A stretch of 64,000 nucleotides of DNA from Bacteroidales bacterium. Lineage in GTDB: Bacteria; Bacteroidota; Bacteroidia; Bacteroidales; UBA12077. Numbering within the stretch: position 1 is the first letter of the stretch; the number at the start of each line of letters is the position of its first letter. Position numbers and translations under genes: made by a program. The stretch covers positions 1 through 64,000 of the forward strand of contig JANQHR010000047.1 of assembly GCA_028282585.1 (NCBI GenBank), given 5' to 3'. This document shows positions 42,459 to 50,347 of this stretch, piece by piece. The notes under the pieces were generated by a model. That model did no database searches. It worked only from the letters and a program-made list of their open reading frames with translations, and had not been told where the DNA came from.

Positions 42459-42746
42459 ATGATTATGAAAATCTTCGAAATTATCGAAAGGCTTGATCTT
42501 ATCTATAAATTAATTAAAGAACAGCAAACTGGAACAGCAAAAGAGTTTGCTCAAAAAGTAGGATTATCGCGAAGTCAGCTTTTTAACTACTTAGATTATT
42601 TAAAATCATTTGACATTGAAATAAAATACGATATTTTTTTAAACTCATATGTAATTGAAAGTAAAAAAGAGTTAAAAATTCAACAGCCCATTAGAGTTTT
42701 AAATGATTACGAACATACTAAAGTCGATGGGGAAGGAATTTTTTAA
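42459..42746 (+). CDS. Small HTH transcriptional regulator
   Basis: TGTAKEFAQKVGLSRSQLFNYLDYLK HTH; TATATTTG promoter at 42410-42417. Confidence 0.82.
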   Translation: MIMKIFEIIERLDLIYKLIKEQQTGTAKEFAQKVGLSRSQLFNYLDYLKSFDIEIKYDIFLNSYVIESKKELKIQQPIRVLNDYEHTKVDGEGIF

Positions 42747-42847: not shown

Positions 42848-43088
42848 ATGAAAGTATTTGAAATTATGATTGATAAAAAGATATAGTTATGCTACTATAG
42901 CAGAAAAAATTGAAAATACAAATGAGTTTGCCAGGAGAGTAGGAATAATATCACGAGGTATTTTTTTTAATCATTTTGATTATTTAAAAGCATACGAAAT
43001 TGATACTAAGTTTGAAAAGAAGAAAAACTTTTTTGTAATTTCAAATTCTGTTGAAATAGGAGTTATAGAATCTATTCAGGTAATTTAA
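42848..43088 (+). pseudogene. Frameshifted paralog of the preceding HTH regulator
   Basis: MKVFEI start (paralog has MKIFEI) is out of frame with NEFARRVG..SR..FNHFDYLKAYEI. Confidence 0.7.
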
Positions 43089-43116
43089 AATGTTAAATTT
43101 TTATAAAAAATTAAAG

Positions 43117-43258
43117 AGTCCAATTTTATTGGACTGGGTAGGTATTAAATTCGTTCACAGAACGGATGAAAACCATAAGGCGCCAAAGGTAAATATATCC
43201 GTTTTGGGCGGATACTGAAAAGCCTTAAAAGAGTAAGTATTAAACTTAAAAATAAAAA
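43117..43258 (+). repeat. Cassette head module, copy 1 (operator palindrome + promoter + leader)
   Basis: AGTCCAATTTTATTGGACT, TAAATTCG -7-like box and 81-nt leader; repeated at 45126 and 45826. Confidence 0.9.
43161..43241 (+). ncRNA. Candidate structured leader RNA, copy 1
   Basis: AACGGAT/ATCCGTT stem, GATACT/AGTATT stem, loop-loop TAAGGC/GCCTTA complementarity. Confidence 0.6.
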
Positions 43259-43426
43259 ATGGAAAATTTAGAAAATTACGGAGTTGAACTTCTTGACAAA
43301 CAAGGAGTAAAAGAAATTAATGGAGGTAAAGCTTGGCCTTGGTACGTTGCACTAGCGATTTGGATATACGATAATCGAAGTGATATTAAAGAGGGGTGGG
43401 ATTCATATGAACCAAAATATAGTTAG
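43259..43426 (+). CDS. Double-glycine leader peptide 1A (bacteriocin-like precursor)
   Basis: MENLENYGVELLDKQGVKEINGG|KAWPWYVALAIWIYDNRSDIKEGWDSYEPKYS (hand-translated, 55 aa). Confidence 0.85.
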   Translation: MENLENYGVELLDKQGVKEINGGKAWPWYVALAIWIYDNRSDIKEGWDSYEPKYS

Positions 43427-43451: not shown

Positions 43452-43616
43452 ATGGAAAATCAAGAAATAAAGTTTATGGAGCTTTCCAATTTGGAAAGAG
43501 AGCAAATTAACGGTGGTGGTGATATTGCAAGGGATCTTGGTTACGCTCTTCATTGGGCATGGGATCATTGGGTACATTTCGCTGCTGATATTTTACCAAA
43601 TACTCGTATGCCATAA
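43452..43616 (+). CDS. Double-glycine leader peptide 1B
   Basis: MENQEIKFMELSNLEREQINGG|GDIARDLGYALHWAWDHWVHFAADILPNTRMP (54 aa). Confidence 0.85.
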   Translation: MENQEIKFMELSNLEREQINGGGDIARDLGYALHWAWDHWVHFAADILPNTRMP

Positions 43617-43633: not shown

Positions 43634-43667
43634 ATCATATCACTTTATAACTATAAAGTGATATGAT
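43634..43667 (+). terminator. Hairpin between peptide pair 1 and the membrane gene
   Basis: 16-bp arms ATCATATCACTTTATA / TATAAAGTGATATGAT. Confidence 0.65.
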
Positions 43668-43688: not shown

Positions 43689-44033
43689 ATGAAAGAAAAA
43701 GTTCTAAAAAAAATAATGCCTTATGGCTATAAAGTGATCGAACATGATGATACAGTATTAATAAAGAGCTATTTTGGTAATTTAAAAATAAGTTACAATA
43801 ATAAATCTTATAGTATAACGAAAAAATTTAATTTTAGTAATTATTCTTTATTGGCTTTTTTAATTTTCTTTTTTATAGTCGTTTATGAGGGTAGACATGA
43901 TATAGATGTAATTATATATGTTATAATTTCCTTAGCTATTATTATGCAAATCTTTTATAATTCAATAATGCTTGAAATAAGAAAAAATAAATTACATTCA
44001 GTTTTAGATGAAATTTTTAATTCTTATGAATAA
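43689..44033 (+). CDS. Small membrane protein (candidate immunity)
   Basis: 114 aa, two TMs, follows peptide pair 1. Confidence 0.65.
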   Translation: MKEKVLKKIMPYGYKVIEHDDTVLIKSYFGNLKISYNNKSYSITKKFNFSNYSLLAFLIFFFIVVYEGRHDIDVIIYVIISLAIIMQIFYNSIMLEIRKNKLHSVLDEIFNSYE

Positions 44034-44350: not shown

Positions 44351-44710
44351 ATGGAGAAAATGGATTTAGTTTTAAATAACGGGCTGATTATTATAGGCTT
44401 ATTGTTGTCTTATTCTATTATGTCACAGGTTTTTTTAAAAAAAGAATTAGGAGGTCAAATAAGGACTAAACTAAAAGAAAATATTTTATTAATCGGATTT
44501 ACATTATATATATTCATTGGAATGTTTTTTGGTTTAGGAATCTTATTTAGTATTGGAATTTCAATAACTGTATTTGGTATTTTAAAGCTTATTCCTAATA
44601 AAATATGGGTAGAGCAGTATTTCCAAGGTTTATATATTACATTACAAGTCGCCTATATTTCAACCATAATAGTATTGTTAATATATTTTATTTTTAAGCT
44701 CATAGTTTAA
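44351..44710 (+). CDS. Small membrane protein (candidate immunity)
   Basis: 119 aa, ~4 TMs, preceded by hairpin TATGGTCA..TGACCATA. Confidence 0.7.
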   Translation: MEKMDLVLNNGLIIIGLLLSYSIMSQVFLKKELGGQIRTKLKENILLIGFTLYIFIGMFFGLGILFSIGISITVFGILKLIPNKIWVEQYFQGLYITLQVAYISTIIVLLIYFIFKLIV

Positions 44711-45125: not shown

Positions 45126-45268
45126 AGTCCAATTTTATTGGACAGGGTGCGTATTAAATTCGTTCACAGAACGGATAAAAATCATAAGGCGCCATAGGTA
45201 AATAAATCCTTTTTAGTCGGATACTGAAAAGCCTTAAAAGAGTAAGTATTGAATTTAAAAATGATAAA
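45126..45268 (+). repeat. Cassette head module, copy 2 (leader RNA 45170-45250)
   Basis: Same palindrome and promoter; leader 74/81 identical to copy 1. Confidence 0.9.
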
Positions 45269-45421
45269 ATGGAAACAAAGGTTAAAGAACTTTCAGAACA
45301 TGAAATTATAAATATTAATGGTGGTGATGGTTTTGCTGAAGATGTTGGAGAAATTATAGGTTTTAGTATTAAATTTAATTATAATGTTTTGAAATGGGTT
45401 TATGACTCTATAATAGGATAA
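45269..45421 (+). CDS. Double-glycine leader peptide 2
   Basis: METKVKELSEHEIININGG|DGFAEDVGEIIGFSIKFNYNVLKWVYDSIIG (50 aa). Confidence 0.85.
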   Translation: METKVKELSEHEIININGGDGFAEDVGEIIGFSIKFNYNVLKWVYDSIIG

Positions 45422-45444: not shown

Positions 45445-45487
45445 AATACAAGCTTAGGTTTTATTACTAAAAATCTAGGTTTGTATT
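45445..45487 (+). terminator. Hairpin after peptide 2
   Basis: AATACAAGCTTAGGTTTT / AAAATCTAGGTTTGTATT imperfect inverted repeat followed by a T-run. Confidence 0.6.
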
Positions 45488-45516
45488 TTTATAAACTTTT
45501 AATAGATAAAAAAACT

Positions 45517-45633
45517 ATGAAGATTTTTAAGCGGAAAAGAGATTTTATAGTCTTGGTTATAAGCATTATTGTTTCTTTAATAATATTTAAAAATTGGGAG
45601 TTAATAAAGGAATTCTTGAGTTCGTTATTTTAA
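45517..45633 (+). CDS. 38-aa single-TM protein (candidate immunity)
   Basis: MKIFKRKRDFIVLVISIIVSLIIFKNWELIKEFLSSLF; same position in its unit as the other membrane genes. Confidence 0.6.
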   Translation: MKIFKRKRDFIVLVISIIVSLIIFKNWELIKEFLSSLF

Positions 45634-45660: not shown

Positions 45661-45762
45661 ATGGTAGAAAAATACCCGGCAAATATTGTTGGAAGTACTG
45701 CCACATATCATTTATTTAAAAACTCAATCAAAAGACAGGTAATATATAATGCAGTGGTGTAA
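45661..45762 (+). pseudogene. Truncated 5' fragment of hlyD, scar 2
   Basis: MVEKYPANIVGSTATYHLFKNSIKRQVIYNAVV* versus HlyD MNKKVYPTDIVESTVEYHLTQNSTKSQVIYITVI. Confidence 0.75.
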
Positions 45763-45825: not shown

Positions 45826-45967
45826 AGTCCAATTTTATTGGACAGGGTGCTTATTAATTTCGTTCACGAACGGATAAAAACCATAAGGCGCCAAAGGTAA
45901 ATATATCCGTTTTGGGCGGATACTGAAAAGCCTTAAAAGAGTAGGTATTAAACTTAAAAATTATAAA
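45826..45967 (+). repeat. Cassette head module, copy 3 (leader RNA 45869-45949)
   Basis: Same palindrome and promoter; leader 79/81 identical to copy 1. Confidence 0.9.
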
Positions 45968-46141
45968 ATGGAAAATTTAGAAAATTATGGAGTAGTTTCT
46001 TTGGACACGAAAGAAATGCAAGAAACTGAAGGAGGCAACCCTTGGGCAATATTTGCTGCTGGACTTGTTTTAGGTGCTATCATTAGTGATTGGGCAGGCT
46101 TTAAAAATGGAATAATGGATGGAATTGCTGATAATCAATAA
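45968..46141 (+). CDS. Double-glycine leader peptide 3A
   Basis: MENLENYGVVSLDTKEMQETEGG|NPWAIFAAGLVLGAIISDWAGFKNGIMDGIADNQ (57 aa). Confidence 0.87.
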   Translation: MENLENYGVVSLDTKEMQETEGGNPWAIFAAGLVLGAIISDWAGFKNGIMDGIADNQ

Positions 46142-46152
46142 GAATTAATAAT

Positions 46153-46308
46153 ATGGAAAATTTAGAATTATTAAGAATAGAAGAATTAAGTAATATTAAT
46201 GGAGGTGAACCAACAAGAGATACATCGTTTGGATATGATGTAGGTTATGCTATTGGAACAATGCTTACTGCCAAATTTTGGGAAGATTGGTCAATTAGTA
46301 TACTTTAA
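46153..46308 (+). CDS. Double-glycine leader peptide 3B
   Basis: MENLELLRIEELSNINGG|EPTRDTSFGYDVGYAIGTMLTAKFWEDWSISIL (51 aa). Confidence 0.87.
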   Translation: MENLELLRIEELSNINGGEPTRDTSFGYDVGYAIGTMLTAKFWEDWSISIL

Positions 46309-46374: not shown

Positions 46375-46593
46375 ATGAAATCAAATATGAAATCAATTCT
46401 ATTAAAATACATAGTTATAATTATAGCAATGTATTTCTTTCATTTAATTATTGCTAATTGGGCTTTTATAAAATCTTTGATTGAAGGCTTTCATCAAAAA
46501 AAGTTTATTTTTCTAGACCTTAAGTTGTTTATTGTAAATTTTTTTGTTGTATTAGCCTTTCTTGTTCTTGACTTATATAAAAAGATCTTTTAA
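46375..46593 (+). CDS. Small two-TM protein (candidate immunity)
   Basis: 72-aa hydrophobic ORF following peptide pair 3. Confidence 0.65.
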   Translation: MKSNMKSILLKYIVIIIAMYFFHLIIANWAFIKSLIEGFHQKKFIFLDLKLFIVNFFVVLAFLVLDLYKKIF

Positions 46594-46612
46594 TATAAAT
46601 AGGGGAAATTGT

Positions 46613-46714
46613 TTATATCTTGCGGCTATTAATGAAAGCACGGCTAAATACCATTTAGCAAAAAACTCAACAAAAAGTCAAATTATTTAAAAAGCCGTAA
46701 TTCTGCCTTTTATT
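46613..46714 (+). pseudogene. Decayed 5' fragment of hlyD, scar 3
   Basis: LYLAAINESTAKYHLAKNSTKSQII*KAVILPFI versus HlyD VYPTDIVESTVEYHLTQNSTKSQVIYITVILAFI. Confidence 0.78.
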
Positions 46715-46993: not shown

Positions 46994-48151
46994 ATGAATA
47001 AAAAAGTATATCCAACAGATATAGTTGAAAGCACAGTCGAATACCATCTAACGCAAAACTCGACCAAAAGCCAGGTAATATATATTACAGTAATTTTAGC
47101 ATTTATTGTTGCCATAGCCTTGTTACCATTTGTTTATATAAATATAACAGTACAAGGAGGTGGTATTGTAAGACCGGTTACAGAAAAAACAGAGGTAAAA
47201 GCATTGGTTTCAGGTAGAGTTGCAAATGTTTTTATAGAGAATGAGCAACAAGTTTTAGAGGGAGATACTGTGTTAATTGTTCAAAGCGATAAATTAAGTA
47301 GTCAGCATAATTTACTTCAAAAACAAATAAAAGAAAAAAGGGATTTTATAAGCGATTTAGAAAAATTGGTAATTCTTAAAGCTTCAACCTTTAATTCAGA
47401 TAAATACCAGGGAGAGTATTTTAAATTCAAAGAACAGATTACACAAGTAAAAAATAAACGAAAAAAAGCAAAAAGAGAACTTGACAGAAACAAAGTTTTA
47501 CTTGAACAAGAGTTTATAAGCAAAAAAGAATACGACGATTTAAATTATCAATACCTATTAGCAGACAATGAATACAATTTGACCGTTACCAATCAGTTAA
47601 GTGTTTGGAAGTCAGATTTAAGTCGTTGCAGGTCAACTATGGAAGACCTAAAATCACAGTTAGAACAACTACAAAAAGAACAAGAGTTTTATGTAATAAA
47701 AGCACCGGTAACCGGTACCATTGAGCAATTTGCAGGGATTTATGAAGGAACCAATATTCAGTCGGGTCAAATTATTGCAGGAATAAGCCCGGAAACCGAT
47801 TTAATTGCAGAAGTTTACATATCACCTAAAGATATCGGTTACCTTAAAGAAGGAACTCCCTTAAATATTCAGGTTGATGCATTTAATTACAACGACTGGG
47901 GAATGATCAAAGGTGAGATTATTAATATTTCAGATGACTATATTTTGCTAGAAAATCAACCGGTGTTTAAAATCCGTTGTAAAATGGAGCAAAATCAACT
48001 TAGCCTGAGAAATGGGATAACAGGAGACGTAAAAAAAGGCATGACTATTAGAGCAAGGTTTTTGTTGGCAAAAAGGTCCTTATACCAGCTATTGTTTGAT
48101 AATGTAAATGACTGGTTAAATCCTGCCCAAAACAACAATTCCAAGAAGTAA
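46994..48151 (+). CDS. HlyD family secretion adaptor of the peptide exporter
   Basis: N-terminal TM, lipoyl-like halves, coiled coil, IKAPVTG and VDAFNYNDWG motifs. Confidence 0.92.
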   Translation: MNKKVYPTDIVESTVEYHLTQNSTKSQVIYITVILAFIVAIALLPFVYINITVQGGGIVRPVTEKTEVKALVSGRVANVFIENEQQVLEGDTVLIVQSDKLSSQHNLLQKQIKEKRDFISDLEKLVILKASTFNSDKYQGEYFKFKEQITQVKNKRKKAKRELDRNKVLLEQEFISKKEYDDLNYQYLLADNEYNLTVTNQLSVWKSDLSRCRSTMEDLKSQLEQLQKEQEFYVIKAPVTGTIEQFAGIYEGTNIQSGQIIAGISPETDLIAEVYISPKDIGYLKEGTPLNIQVDAFNYNDWGMIKGEIINISDDYILLENQPVFKIRCKMEQNQLSLRNGITGDVKKGMTIRARFLLAKRSLYQLLFDNVNDWLNPAQNNNSKK

Positions 48152-48166
48152 TCAACAGATATCAGA

Positions 48167-50347
48167 ATGAAAAAATCAGTAAGAATCAAACAGCATGATA
48201 TTACCGATTGTGGGGCGGCTTGCCTGGCATCCATAGCAGCACATCATGGATTAAAATTACCTATATCAAAAATACGGCAATATGCTTCAACCGATCAAAA
48301 AGGAACCAATGTTTTGGGAGTAATAGAAGCAGCAGAAAAGTTGGGATTTACTGCAAAAGGTGTAAAAGGTCCTTTTGAAAGTTTGTTTAAGATTCCTAAA
48401 CCAACGATCGCACATATCATTGTAAAAGAAAGATTGCACCATTATGTAGTTATATATAAGACAACAAAAAAATATATTATTATTATGGATCCGGGCACAG
48501 GCAGGATTCATAAAAAAACGCATGAGGAATTTAAAAAGGAATGGACAGGTATTTTAATTCTCATTATGCCTGATAAGTCTTTTAAAAAAGGAAATGAAAA
48601 AACTTCCATAACAAAACGTTTCTTTCAATTAATACGCCCGCACAGAACTATCATGATCCAGGCACTTTTTGGAGCCATTATATACAGTATTTTGGGTTTA
48701 TCTACTTCAATCTATGTTGAAAAAATAGTTGATTATGTTTTGGTAGATGGTAATTTAAACTTGCTTAACCTTCTAAGCACAATTATGATTGCTTTATTAC
48801 TCTTGCGAGTTTATATCGGAGTGATGAAAAGTATTTTTGCCTTGAAAACGGGACAAAAGATGGATGCCGCTTTAATATTGGGTTATTACAAACACCTGAT
48901 GAGACTTCCTCAACGTTTTTTTGATACTATGCGAACAGGGGAAGTCATTTCAAGAATAAATGATGCAGTTAAAATACGAACATTTATTAACAATGTATCG
49001 CTCGATTTGGCTGTTAATGTCATGATCGTATTTTTCACCTTTTCGTTAATGTTTATTTACTCCTGGAAGTTAGCTTTAATTGTTTTGGCGGCTATTCCGT
49101 TATATATTGTAATTTATCTTATTTATAATAAGTTAAATAAGAAATACCTGCGAAGAAATATGGAAAATGCTGCAGAACTAGAATCACAACTGGTTGAGTC
49201 CATCAATGCATCATCTACCATTAAAAGATTTGGATTGGAGAAATTTGCCAATTTAAAAACAGAGACTCGTTTTATAAAGTTATTAAGTTCCACTTATCAT
49301 TCTGTAAAAAATTCCATCTTTTCAAGTAGTTCGACTACTTTTATAGCAGGTGCAGTCACAATAGCCGTTCTTTGGATAGGTTCTAGGAGTGTAGTAAGTC
49401 AGGAAATGACTCCGGGTGAATTAATGTCTTTTTATGCTTTAATAGGTTATATTCTAAGTCCACTTGCAGGTTTAATTGATACTAACAAGGTGGTTCAGGA
49501 TGCTTTGATTGCAGCAGACCGCTTATTTCAGATCATGGATTTGGAGATGGAAGAAACAGAGAAAGAAAAGATGATATTGACACCTGATATGATAGGAGAT
49601 ATTAATTTCAAAAATGTATCCTTTAGGTATGGCTCCAGAGTTACCGTTTTTGAAAACCTGGATTTAACGATTCAAAAGAATAAAATGACAGCCATAGTCG
49701 GTGAAAGTGGTTCGGGTAAAACAACGCTTATATCACTGTTACAAAACATTTATCCTTTGCAATCCGGGAATATTGAATTCGGAAAATATAACCTTAACTA
49801 CATAAGTAATGAAAGCCTTAGGGAAATGGTAAGTGTTGTTCCTCAAAAGATTGATTTATTTGCAGGCAGTATACTTGAGAATATAGCCATTGGAGATTTA
49901 GAGCCTGATATGAAAAGAACAATAGATATTTGCCAATCATTAGGAATTATGAAGTTTATCGAGAAGCTACCAGGTGGTTTTCAAACCTATGTTGGAGAGA
50001 ATGGAGTTTCACTTTCAGGAGGTGAAAAGCAAAGAATTGCTATTGCTCGGGCTTTATATAAGAATCCGGAAGTATTAATATTAGATGAGGCTACATCCTC
50101 ACTTGACTCTGCTTCAGAACAATATGTTCAACAAGCCATACAATATTTAAAAAATCAAAATAAGACCATAATCGTCATTGCTCATAGATTAAGTACCGTA
50201 ATGAATGCAGATGAAATCTTTGTTCTAAATGAAGGTAAGGTAGTTGAAAATGGAGATCATCAGGAACTAATTGATGGAAGAGGATTTTATTATAATTTAT
50301 GGAAACAACAATTTCCAATGTTAAAAGAGTTAGAATTAATGCATTGA
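48167..50347 (+). CDS. Peptidase-containing ABC transporter (C39 PCAT)
   Basis: QHDITDCGAACL and HYVV C39 motifs, TMD, GESGSGKT, LSGGEKQR. Confidence 0.96.
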   Translation: MKKSVRIKQHDITDCGAACLASIAAHHGLKLPISKIRQYASTDQKGTNVLGVIEAAEKLGFTAKGVKGPFESLFKIPKPTIAHIIVKERLHHYVVIYKTTKKYIIIMDPGTGRIHKKTHEEFKKEWTGILILIMPDKSFKKGNEKTSITKRFFQLIRPHRTIMIQALFGAIIYSILGLSTSIYVEKIVDYVLVDGNLNLLNLLSTIMIALLLLRVYIGVMKSIFALKTGQKMDAALILGYYKHLMRLPQRFFDTMRTGEVISRINDAVKIRTFINNVSLDLAVNVMIVFFTFSLMFIYSWKLALIVLAAIPLYIVIYLIYNKLNKKYLRRNMENAAELESQLVESINASSTIKRFGLEKFANLKTETRFIKLLSSTYHSVKNSIFSSSSTTFIAGAVTIAVLWIGSRSVVSQEMTPGELMSFYALIGYILSPLAGLIDTNKVVQDALIAADRLFQIMDLEMEETEKEKMILTPDMIGDINFKNVSFRYGSRVTVFENLDLTIQKNKMTAIVGESGSGKTTLISLLQNIYPLQSGNIEFGKYNLNYISNESLREMVSVVPQKIDLFAGSILENIAIGDLEPDMKRTIDICQSLGIMKFIEKLPGGFQTYVGENGVSLSGGEKQRIAIARALYKNPEVLILDEATSSLDSASEQYVQQAIQYLKNQNKTIIVIAHRLSTVMNADEIFVLNEGKVVENGDHQELIDGRGFYYNLWKQQFPMLKELELMH

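Follow-up and report, generated by a model that had tools for sequence, protein, structure and literature searches.

Three peptide cassettes on a 64,000-nucleotide (nt) stretch of the genome of a Bacteroidales bacterium (contig JANQHR010000047.1, positions 1 to 64,000, referred to here as the window) are each preceded by a copy of the same leader, which raises the question of what kind of RNA this leader is and how it might act on the genes that follow it. The original prediction described an 81-nt RNA folded through a loop-loop pseudoknot, belonging to no named family and possibly serving as an antitermination element or a riboswitch. The analysis reported here leads to a different description, in which the leader consists of two modules, a 5' stem-loop (hairpin 1) and a 3' pseudoknot belonging to the Rfam motif DUF805b. 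The 5' hairpin is found in several genera, where the genes behind it are of peptide, lipoprotein and other types; the leader is therefore a variant architecture of a known motif and not a new kind of RNA.

A leader is indeed found at the three predicted sites, but the repeated unit spans about 180 nt and not 81. This promoter-leader module, comprising a 17-base-pair (bp) palindrome, a promoter and the 81-nt leader, starts at 43087, 45096 and 45795 with a mean column identity of 90%, and each copy precedes a small open reading frame (ORF) with a double-glycine leader (at 43259, 45269 and 45968). All of the letters originally quoted are in place: AACGGAT at 43161, 45170 and 45869; TAAGGC at 43176-43181 and GCCTTA at 43222-43227, complementary and identical in the alignment of the three copies; and GATACT at 43211-43216 with AGTATT at 43236-43241, the latter reading GGTATT in copy 3. 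The three exchanges between Watson-Crick and G-U pairs are likewise present (G43168 versus A, C versus T in the inner ACC, and A versus G in GAGTA(A/G)G). Since recent duplication accounts for the identity of the three window copies, their invariance says nothing on structure, and the whole 81-mers fold no better than shuffled sequences (z = -0.75, -0.42 and -0.66 for the three copies). Structural support therefore comes only from relatives in other genomes.

The 3' half of the leader was compared with Rfam release 15. In every copy, the last 35–37 nt of the leader match RF02914 (DUF805b, clan CL00115) over the full length of the model. The pseudoknot occupies 43205-43241 in copy 1 (match 43205-43239, 38.5 bits) and 45913-45949 in copy 3 (match 45913-45947, 42.9 bits), both on the forward strand and above the curated cut-off of 35.6 bits, and 45214-45250 on the same strand in copy 2, where the match (45214-45248, 26.2 bits, E = 0.00017) falls below it. 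Thus, the statement that the leader belongs to no named family fails for its 3' half, with two of three copies above the cut-off, and holds for its 5' half, which has no match. The RF02913 model (pemK) gave no meaningful match to the leader.

Rfam lists DUF805b as a cis-regulatory candidate, and the structure line that cmscan reports for it shows only the first helix, P1, without a pseudoknot. Across the family, P1 consists of 3–5 bp closing a 12-nt loop, GGANNCNGAAAA, whose NCC pairs with the GGN of the conserved tail AGAGUAGG. In the window, P1 is GGGC/GCCU (in copy 1, GGGC at 43206-43209 with GCCT at 43222-43225) and closes the loop GGAUACUGAAAA, in which ACU pairs with AGU or GGU of the tail. 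The complete pseudoknot helix of copy 1 joins GATACT (43211-43216) to AGTATT (43236-43241), and GAA (43217-43219) lies opposite AGTA (43232-43235); copy 2 has a weakened P1 (AGTC/GCCT, one mismatch, 2 bp). The pairing of GATACT with RGTATT had been drawn as a second hairpin; its covariation in relatives upholds the pairing itself. Since GATACT is part of the P1 loop and RGTATT part of the tail, however, this pairing makes up the second helix in an H-type pseudoknot. The window leaders therefore share with DUF805b the P1 hairpin, the loop and tail and the distance of about 21 nt to the ATG, and differ from it in that ACU…AGU or ACU…GGU takes the place of NCC…GGN and the pseudoknot is lengthened to 6 bp; the genes that they serve encode double-glycine peptides. 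Module 2 is an ordinary DUF805b member, in which four of five features of the family were found: a score above the cut-off (copies 1 and 3), P1 with its loop, the pseudoknot tail and the start-codon distance.

Both helices were examined in 116 distinct DUF805b instances from related loci, each required to have three P1 pairs, and the helix tests used an alignment of the 110 instances in which 7 nt, the standard spacing, separate P1 from GAAAA. The covariation score was 0.435, compared with 0.160 in shuffles; none of 500 shuffles reached it, and slid controls did not exceed 0.147. Pair types in P1 include G-C (75), A-U (22), C-G (9) and U-A (4). The pseudoknot pairing was not among the selection criteria of the instance set, and an independent count of it was equalled in none of 2000 permutations. 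Its first and second pairs are C-G in 98 and 105 of the 110 instances and U-A in 5 and 4, respectively, while the third, paired in 95 and unpaired in 15, includes G-C (34), A-U (28), U-A (16), C-G (9) and G-U (7). Window copies 1 and 2 themselves both carry a compensatory change, a C-to-U exchange in the loop joined with a G-to-A exchange in the tail. These results show that both DUF805b helices are real. Furthermore, GAAAA and AGUA are invariant in all 110 aligned relatives, which fits the loop-E-like signature noted before; as in loop E, or sarcin-ricin (bulged-G), motifs, GAA lies opposite AGUA beside a helix, a resemblance that is seen here as a sequence signature.

In the source genome (4.89 Mb, 173 contigs, 31.9% G+C) there are seven DUF805b matches at E ≤ 0.001, five of them above the cut-off, and three of the four that lie outside the window precede double-glycine peptides. 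Among 101 related genomes, 76 have a match at E ≤ 0.001 and 47 have one above the cut-off. At the loci L036, L338 and L318, a single gene is preceded by two tandem DUF805b units. The name DUF805b is absent from the main text of PMC5737381, the supplement of which lay outside the search, and the pseudoknot, the link to exported proteins or an upstream hairpin may already have been noted in the supplement of the original description of DUF805b. A term search of the main text of PMC9723704, the terms of which did not include the motif name, returned no passage on the motif; in the passages returned, Flavo-1 is the sole computationally inferred flavobacterial motif named.

Upstream of this pseudoknot, hairpin 1 extends on the forward strand over 43159-43205, 45168-45214 and 45867-45913 in copies 1 to 3. 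In copy 1 the outer stem pairs 43159-43168 with 43196-43205 (core AACGGAT/ATCCGTT), the inner stem pairs ACC (43172-43174) with GGT (43188-43190), and the loop bears AAGGCGCCAA at 43177-43186; the constrained fold has an energy of -10.3 kcal/mol. When the loop was held unpaired and the flanks were shuffled 300 times, no shuffle folded as well as copy 1 or copy 3 (both AACGGAU/AUCCGUU), whereas 130 of 300 did so for copy 2. This agrees with the weakening of hairpin 1 originally reported for copy 2, which has a degenerate 3' arm (ATCCTTT) and an inner ATC/GGT stem around an intact loop motif. The same test applied to relatives gave 1 of 300 shuffles as good for the genome G025 (AACGGGU/AUUCGUU, with two G-U pairs), 4 of 300 for G230 (AACAGUU/AACUGUU, with two compensatory changes), none for G038 (locus L017; GCUUUGAGUU/AAUUCGAAGC, with two G-U pairs), none for L262, which has the same arms as G038, and 3 of 300 for L252 (GCUUCG/CGAAGC). 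The GCUUUGAGUU/AAUUCGAAGC arms occur in G038 and in two metagenome contigs. Hairpin 1 is thus backed by the paired arms of differing sequence in relatives.

Between these stems of unrelated sequence, the loop RGGCGCCAA is nearly invariant in the other genomes. A motif with at most two mismatches to AAGGCGCCAA lies upstream of 13 of the 116 DUF805b instances, compared with one match in control stretches, in a set that GGCGCC-based scans had enriched for the loop motif; among the 99 instances obtained from the Rfam model alone, GGCGCC is found upstream in four, and in none of the controls. Within the 64-kb window GGCGCC occurs four times, three of them in the leaders, where about one occurrence is expected. 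Compared with Rfam at E ≤ 10, the region 43150-43206 returned only a chance-level match (UPD-PKc, 13.9 bits, E = 2.8), and the same region of 14 related loci returned DUF805b alone. Together, these comparisons show that the stem of hairpin 1 and the conservation of its loop are real and that this hairpin is absent from Rfam 15.

The relatives on which these comparisons draw were reached by several routes. BLAST within the family returned one full-length relative, G025:C76, with 76% identity, and a search with the neighbouring helix-turn-helix (HTH) protein led to leaders in G230, G404 and G059. Pattern scans added G038 and two metagenome relatives, as well as G164 (two copies), G343, G151, G278, G374 and L259. 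By pattern scan, just 3 of the 56 genomes of the source organism's own family carry a leader of the hairpin-1 type. The scan of metagenomes found the DUF805b core in 5 of 49 stretches (L252, L262, L259, L253 and L264), and L253 and L264 have GGCGCC far upstream without a clear hairpin. Inspection recognised true leaders at 8 of 24 places from the pattern scan of the order and at 5 of 24 from that of the family; since a control with the pattern reversed matched about as often, the leader pattern itself is not enriched.

Other palindromes were seen upstream of DUF805b. A (C)GAGCTC palindrome lies 3–4 nt 5' of P1 in 11 of the 99 unbiased instances and in none of the controls, the loci concerned being of the same genus (L008, L010, L011, L012, L020, L021, L022, L298 and L306). 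GC-rich palindromic hexamers of any kind occur upstream of DUF805b in 21 of 99 instances, compared with 7 in controls.

Three further candidates for the role of the hairpin were considered. Hairpin 1 as a decayed second DUF805b unit was rejected, since it gave no match at E ≤ 10. A pairing of its 3' arm with the DUF805b loop (UAUCCG/CGGAUA) is available in the window and in G025 and by eye is absent from G230 and G038, so it was rejected as a conserved feature. For a partner of the loop acting in trans, the 62 overlapping matches in the source genome to at least 8 nt of the loop complement yielded no candidate; apart from the opposite strand of the leaders themselves, most of them fall within long open frames or belong to a repeat found at the ends of contigs, and AGGCGCCA is not enriched genome-wide, with 16 sites against 20 for a control. 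A repeated non-coding element near the ends of the source contigs C103, C140, C58 and C90 has two copies of (A/T)TTGGC(G/A)CCA(A/G) and includes the 10-nt palindrome TTGGCGCCAA; its presence at several contig ends suggests a multi-copy mobile element.

An inverted repeat with GGCGCC at its core could also be read at the level of DNA, as a second operator for the neighbouring HTH proteins situated just downstream of the transcription start. It adjoins the promoter, it has a 6-bp palindrome at its centre, and the strong-stem versions share their loci with the HTH gene and the upstream palindrome. However, its arms pair through G-U pairs, which are mismatches in DNA, twice in G025 and twice in G038; the box AAGGCGCCAA is asymmetrical beyond its 6 bp; and at L270 and L283 it precedes lipoprotein-type genes without a palindrome of the GTCC…GGAC type in the inspected stretch. 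Because the arms hold G-U pairs and the box is asymmetrical, we take hairpin 1 to be an RNA structure and consider a DNA operator at this place highly improbable.

If hairpin 1 is an RNA structure, its loop could pair with the rest of the leader, as the original prediction proposed in drawing a single 81-nt fold in which TAAGGC of the first loop pairs with GCCTTA of the second hairpin to form an antiterminator or a riboswitch. In favour of this, the hexamers are complementary, neither of them varies among the three copies, and the minimum-energy fold of each copy uses this helix. Nevertheless, GCCU is the 3' strand of P1, covarying with the adjacent GGGC in the 110 relatives, so that the two pairings are mutually exclusive. 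In a comparison of 16 leaders with GGCGCC upstream of the DUF805b core, the loop-loop helix reaches at least 5 bp in nine (the three window copies, L038, L259 and L270, and, in a shifted register, L276, L285 and L286) and at most 4 bp in seven (L193, L017, L252, L262, L291, L283 and L264), while P1 has at least 4 bp in 13 of the 16. Where the 3' flank of P1 is not UU, a matching change in the adjacent 5' strand preserves P1, whereas the upstream loop remains AAGGC; the loop-loop helix thereby falls to 3 bp in L193, L291 and L283 and to 4 bp in L017/L262, with L259 neutral. Moreover, the fold is no better than shuffles (z about -0.7) and the leader lacks a terminator. The complementarity of TAAGGC and GCCTTA is explained by the AAGGC that the loop has in common with the P1 5' strand. 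As judged from these sequence comparisons, the loop-loop knot is not supported as a conserved feature of the relatives, and a single fold of this kind seems to us very unlikely. As an alternative conformer at the window locus it is compatible with the data, notably in copy 2, where, as in L270, the 6-bp run exceeds P1 (2–3 bp; 2 bp in copy 2).

The same resemblance between loop and P1 admits a switch, in which the RGGCGCCAA loop, by combining AAGGC and GCC, would mimic both strands of P1, invade it and toggle the DUF805b knot, the balance between the folded state and the invaded, inactive one being set by a signal or by the ribosome. The loop does correspond to the P1 consensus AAGGC…GCCUU, both alternative helices can form in the window, and the invaded state is the predicted minimum-energy fold (-14.8 kcal/mol, in a calculation that leaves pseudoknotted states outside). 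At L276 a divergent P1 (CAGGGU/ACCCUG) is accompanied by an upstream box CAGGGG-CGCC. In L193, L291, L283 and L017, by contrast, the loop does not covary with P1, L285 and L286 keep GGCGCC despite a P1 of GGGU/ACCU, and neither a ligand nor an expression platform is evident. On balance, we regard such a decoy as unlikely.

Where the leader begins was judged from the promoter. The -7 boxes of the form TAnnTTCG that had been placed just upstream of each leader are present at 43146-43153 and 45155-45162 (TAAATTCG) and at 45855-45862 (TAATTTCG), all on the forward strand and resembling the Bacteroidota sigma-A type TAnnTTTG. Taken by themselves, the type of the box and the distribution of DUF805b would point to a Bacteroidota genome, probably of the Flavobacteriales. 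In the passages of PMC9723704 on Flavobacterium psychrophilum, the sigma-A box TAnnTTTG spans -12 to -5; by that published position, transcripts are predicted to start near 43158, 45167 and 45867. This agrees with the earlier placement of the leader at or next to the transcript start, the predicted start being one base 5' of hairpin 1 in its 10-bp form. In six of seven strong-stem leaders the strict -7 box ends 47–52 nt before P1 (101 nt in L193), and, with the box position given in PMC9723704, hairpin 1 would therefore lie at the extreme 5' end of the transcript. A strict TAnnTT[TC]G box occurs within 120 nt of only 38 of the 116 DUF805b instances and at variable distance, so there is no general rule for the transcript start of DUF805b leaders. 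An inverted repeat, TTCGTTC-ACA-GAACGGA (43154-43167), covers the -7 box and the beginning of hairpin 1, with which it could compete in folding if transcription started further upstream.

The 17-bp perfect palindrome GTCCAATTTTATTGGAC, of the form GTCCAAT-N3-ATTGGAC, is unchanged in the alignment of the three copies and lies on the forward strand at 43118-43134, 45127-45143 and 45827-45843; in cassette 1 it covers about -40 to -24, and in each promoter it overlaps the -33 region. Related palindromes (GTCCAATTTAATTGGAC, GTCCGAGGTTACCGGAC and GTCCAAGGTTACTGGAC) occupy the same place in G025, G038 and its relatives, and G404, at loci that include L017, L252, L262 and L190. This placement points to a candidate operator. 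Two adjoining genes encode a 95-amino-acid (aa) HTH protein (42459-42746, forward strand; HTH_11, E = 7e-4, below the cut-off), which is a candidate regulator, and its 72-aa paralogue (42870-43088). Relatives of the HTH protein occur in 55 of 401 genomes of the order and adjoin leaders of the same type in G025, G230, G404 and G059. The palindrome and the two paralogous HTH genes look like an operator-regulator pair for the bacteriocin cassettes. Among the at least 120 stretches listed in a palindrome scan of genome contigs, none had a DUF805b-type leader downstream. At three leaders that carry the AAGGCGCCAA loop and serve other genes, L270, L291 (G164) and L283 (G343), a box AAACATG(T/C)T…(T)AACATA stands about 70 nt upstream and may be the site of another regulator.

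The position of the pseudoknot bears on how the leader might act. It ends at 43241 and is followed by 17 A/U-rich bases before the ATG; across the instances, the ATG lies 17–28 nt after GAGUAGN in 106 of 116, with a mode of 22, and the distance in the window is 21–22 nt. Across the order, the knot stops some 21–23 nt short of start codons that belong mostly to genes for exported proteins. On the forward strand, none of the three leaders (43158 to 43259 in copy 1) contains a terminator-like hairpin. The antitermination element or terminator-type riboswitch of the original prediction is made unlikely by this lack of a terminator between start and ATG and by the spacing of only 17 bases between knot and ATG. 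From the fixed ATG distance and the absence of a terminator we infer an action on translation initiation or through a bound factor, and the stem at the very 5' end would argue for protection from decay.

The mechanism that we propose is accordingly conditional on the predicted start and on the putative operator. Each cassette would have its own Bacteroidota-type promoter with a palindromic operator and would give a transcript with the two-module leader. In module 2 (43205-43241), P1 and the pairing of its 12-nt loop with the tail …AGAGUA-GGN form an H-type pseudoknot, with the invariant GAAAA opposite the invariant AGUA, which would act on the mRNA beside the ribosome-binding region, in translation initiation or factor binding and not in transcription termination. 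Module 1 (43159-43205) would be an accessory stem-loop that begins only a few nucleotides from the predicted 5' end, where it may protect that end and present the RGGCGCCAA loop to a putative partner.

Known leaders offer partial parallels. Stem-loops at the 5' terminus protect bacterial mRNAs from 5'-end-dependent decay, as in the E. coli ompA leader, and stabilisers of this type need no particular loop. Hairpin 1 resembles them in having a stable stem that begins about 1–3 nt after the predicted 5' end, and departs from them in that its 9–10-nt loop sequence is nearly invariant across genera. The P1 strands, AAGGNGG on the 5' side and NCCUU on the 3' side, resemble a Shine-Dalgarno sequence and its partner, and the bacterial group of the source organism largely does without Shine-Dalgarno sequences. 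Passages of PMC7708055 describe a standby-site pseudoknot in tisB that helps translation from a position upstream of the ribosome-binding region. As far as those passages go, tisB and the present leader share a compact pseudoknot in the 5' untranslated region, a set distance to the start codon and the lack of a terminator behind it; there is no sequence relation between the two.

Several findings weigh against this two-module account. Because three P1 pairs were required of every instance, the inner three are 100% paired by construction and count only through the variety of their pair types, and pairs 4–6 of the pseudoknot, present in the window, are paired in just 33–44% of relatives. For hairpin 1, strong stems represent only about five independent lineages; the stems around the loop are short and made of A-U pairs in L291, L283, L285 and L286 and missing in L270 and L259, and none of these six leaders folds better than shuffles. 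In copy 2, hairpin 1 is lost and P1 weakened, yet an intact peptide gene follows, from which it appears that either module may be dispensable. The genes behind the 116 DUF805b instances fall into 61 of signal or transmembrane type, 35 small double-glycine peptides, 17 others and 3 with none, classes that were assigned by a simple script heuristic with no signal-peptide predictor. Literature searches under the names DUF805b and DUF805 found no paper on the function of DUF805b. Taken with these points, the explanation as a whole, joining promoter, operator, hairpin 1 and DUF805b knot, is one that we favour with moderate confidence.

The genes around the leaders define their setting. In cassette 1 the first gene encodes a 55-aa double-glycine peptide (…EINGG|K…; 43259-43426, forward strand), followed by a second peptide at 43452-43616 and by a terminator-like hairpin with a T tract after the pair (43634-43667, forward strand). 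Cassette 2 encodes a 50-aa double-glycine peptide (45269-45421, forward strand), and cassette 3 a 57-aa one (45968-46141, forward strand) with a second peptide at 46153-46308. Searches of the peptides against Pfam and NCBIfam gave only sub-threshold matches, to leader families of class II bacteriocins, and those of the HTH proteins likewise stayed below threshold. The locus ends with two forward-strand genes, one for an HlyD-family protein (46994-48151; Pfam HlyD_3, 4e-16) and one for an ABC exporter that includes a C39 peptidase domain (48167-50347; Peptidase_C39 2e-37, ABC_membrane 5e-48, ABC_tran 6e-30); by their domains, the two products constitute the predicted export and processing machinery for double-glycine peptides. 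Small hydrophobic ORFs that follow the peptide pairs (43689-44033, 44351-44710, 45481-45633 and 46375-46593) match no Pfam or NCBIfam family and are, by position, candidate immunity proteins. A 42-codon ORF at 43090-43218 was rejected as a gene, because none of the ORFs listed for copies 2 and 3 corresponds to it.

An 84-nt repeat with 68–74% identity, at 45672-45755, 46615-46698 and 47008-47091, matches the beginning of the HlyD-family gene (starting at 46994), and the short ORFs 45661-45762 and 46562-46690 resemble the N-terminus of its product. Because the repeat and these ORFs match the start of hlyD, cassettes 2 and 3 each end with a remnant of it, as if cassettes had been added there by recombination.

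The window thus holds a locus for the export of double-glycine peptides of class II bacteriocin-like type, in which the analysis shows each of the three peptide cassettes to be an autonomous unit of promoter, candidate operator and leader, with a predicted start. If the decoy switch were true, it would mean post-transcriptional control of each bacteriocin cassette and would offer a first handle on the role of DUF805b. This motif is very common in related genomes, often with several copies per genome, and keeps a constant spacing to the start codons that follow it, mostly those of genes for exported proteins. The subclass with an extra 5' hairpin and an invariant loop is a natural experiment, in which the same knot occurs with and without the additional module.

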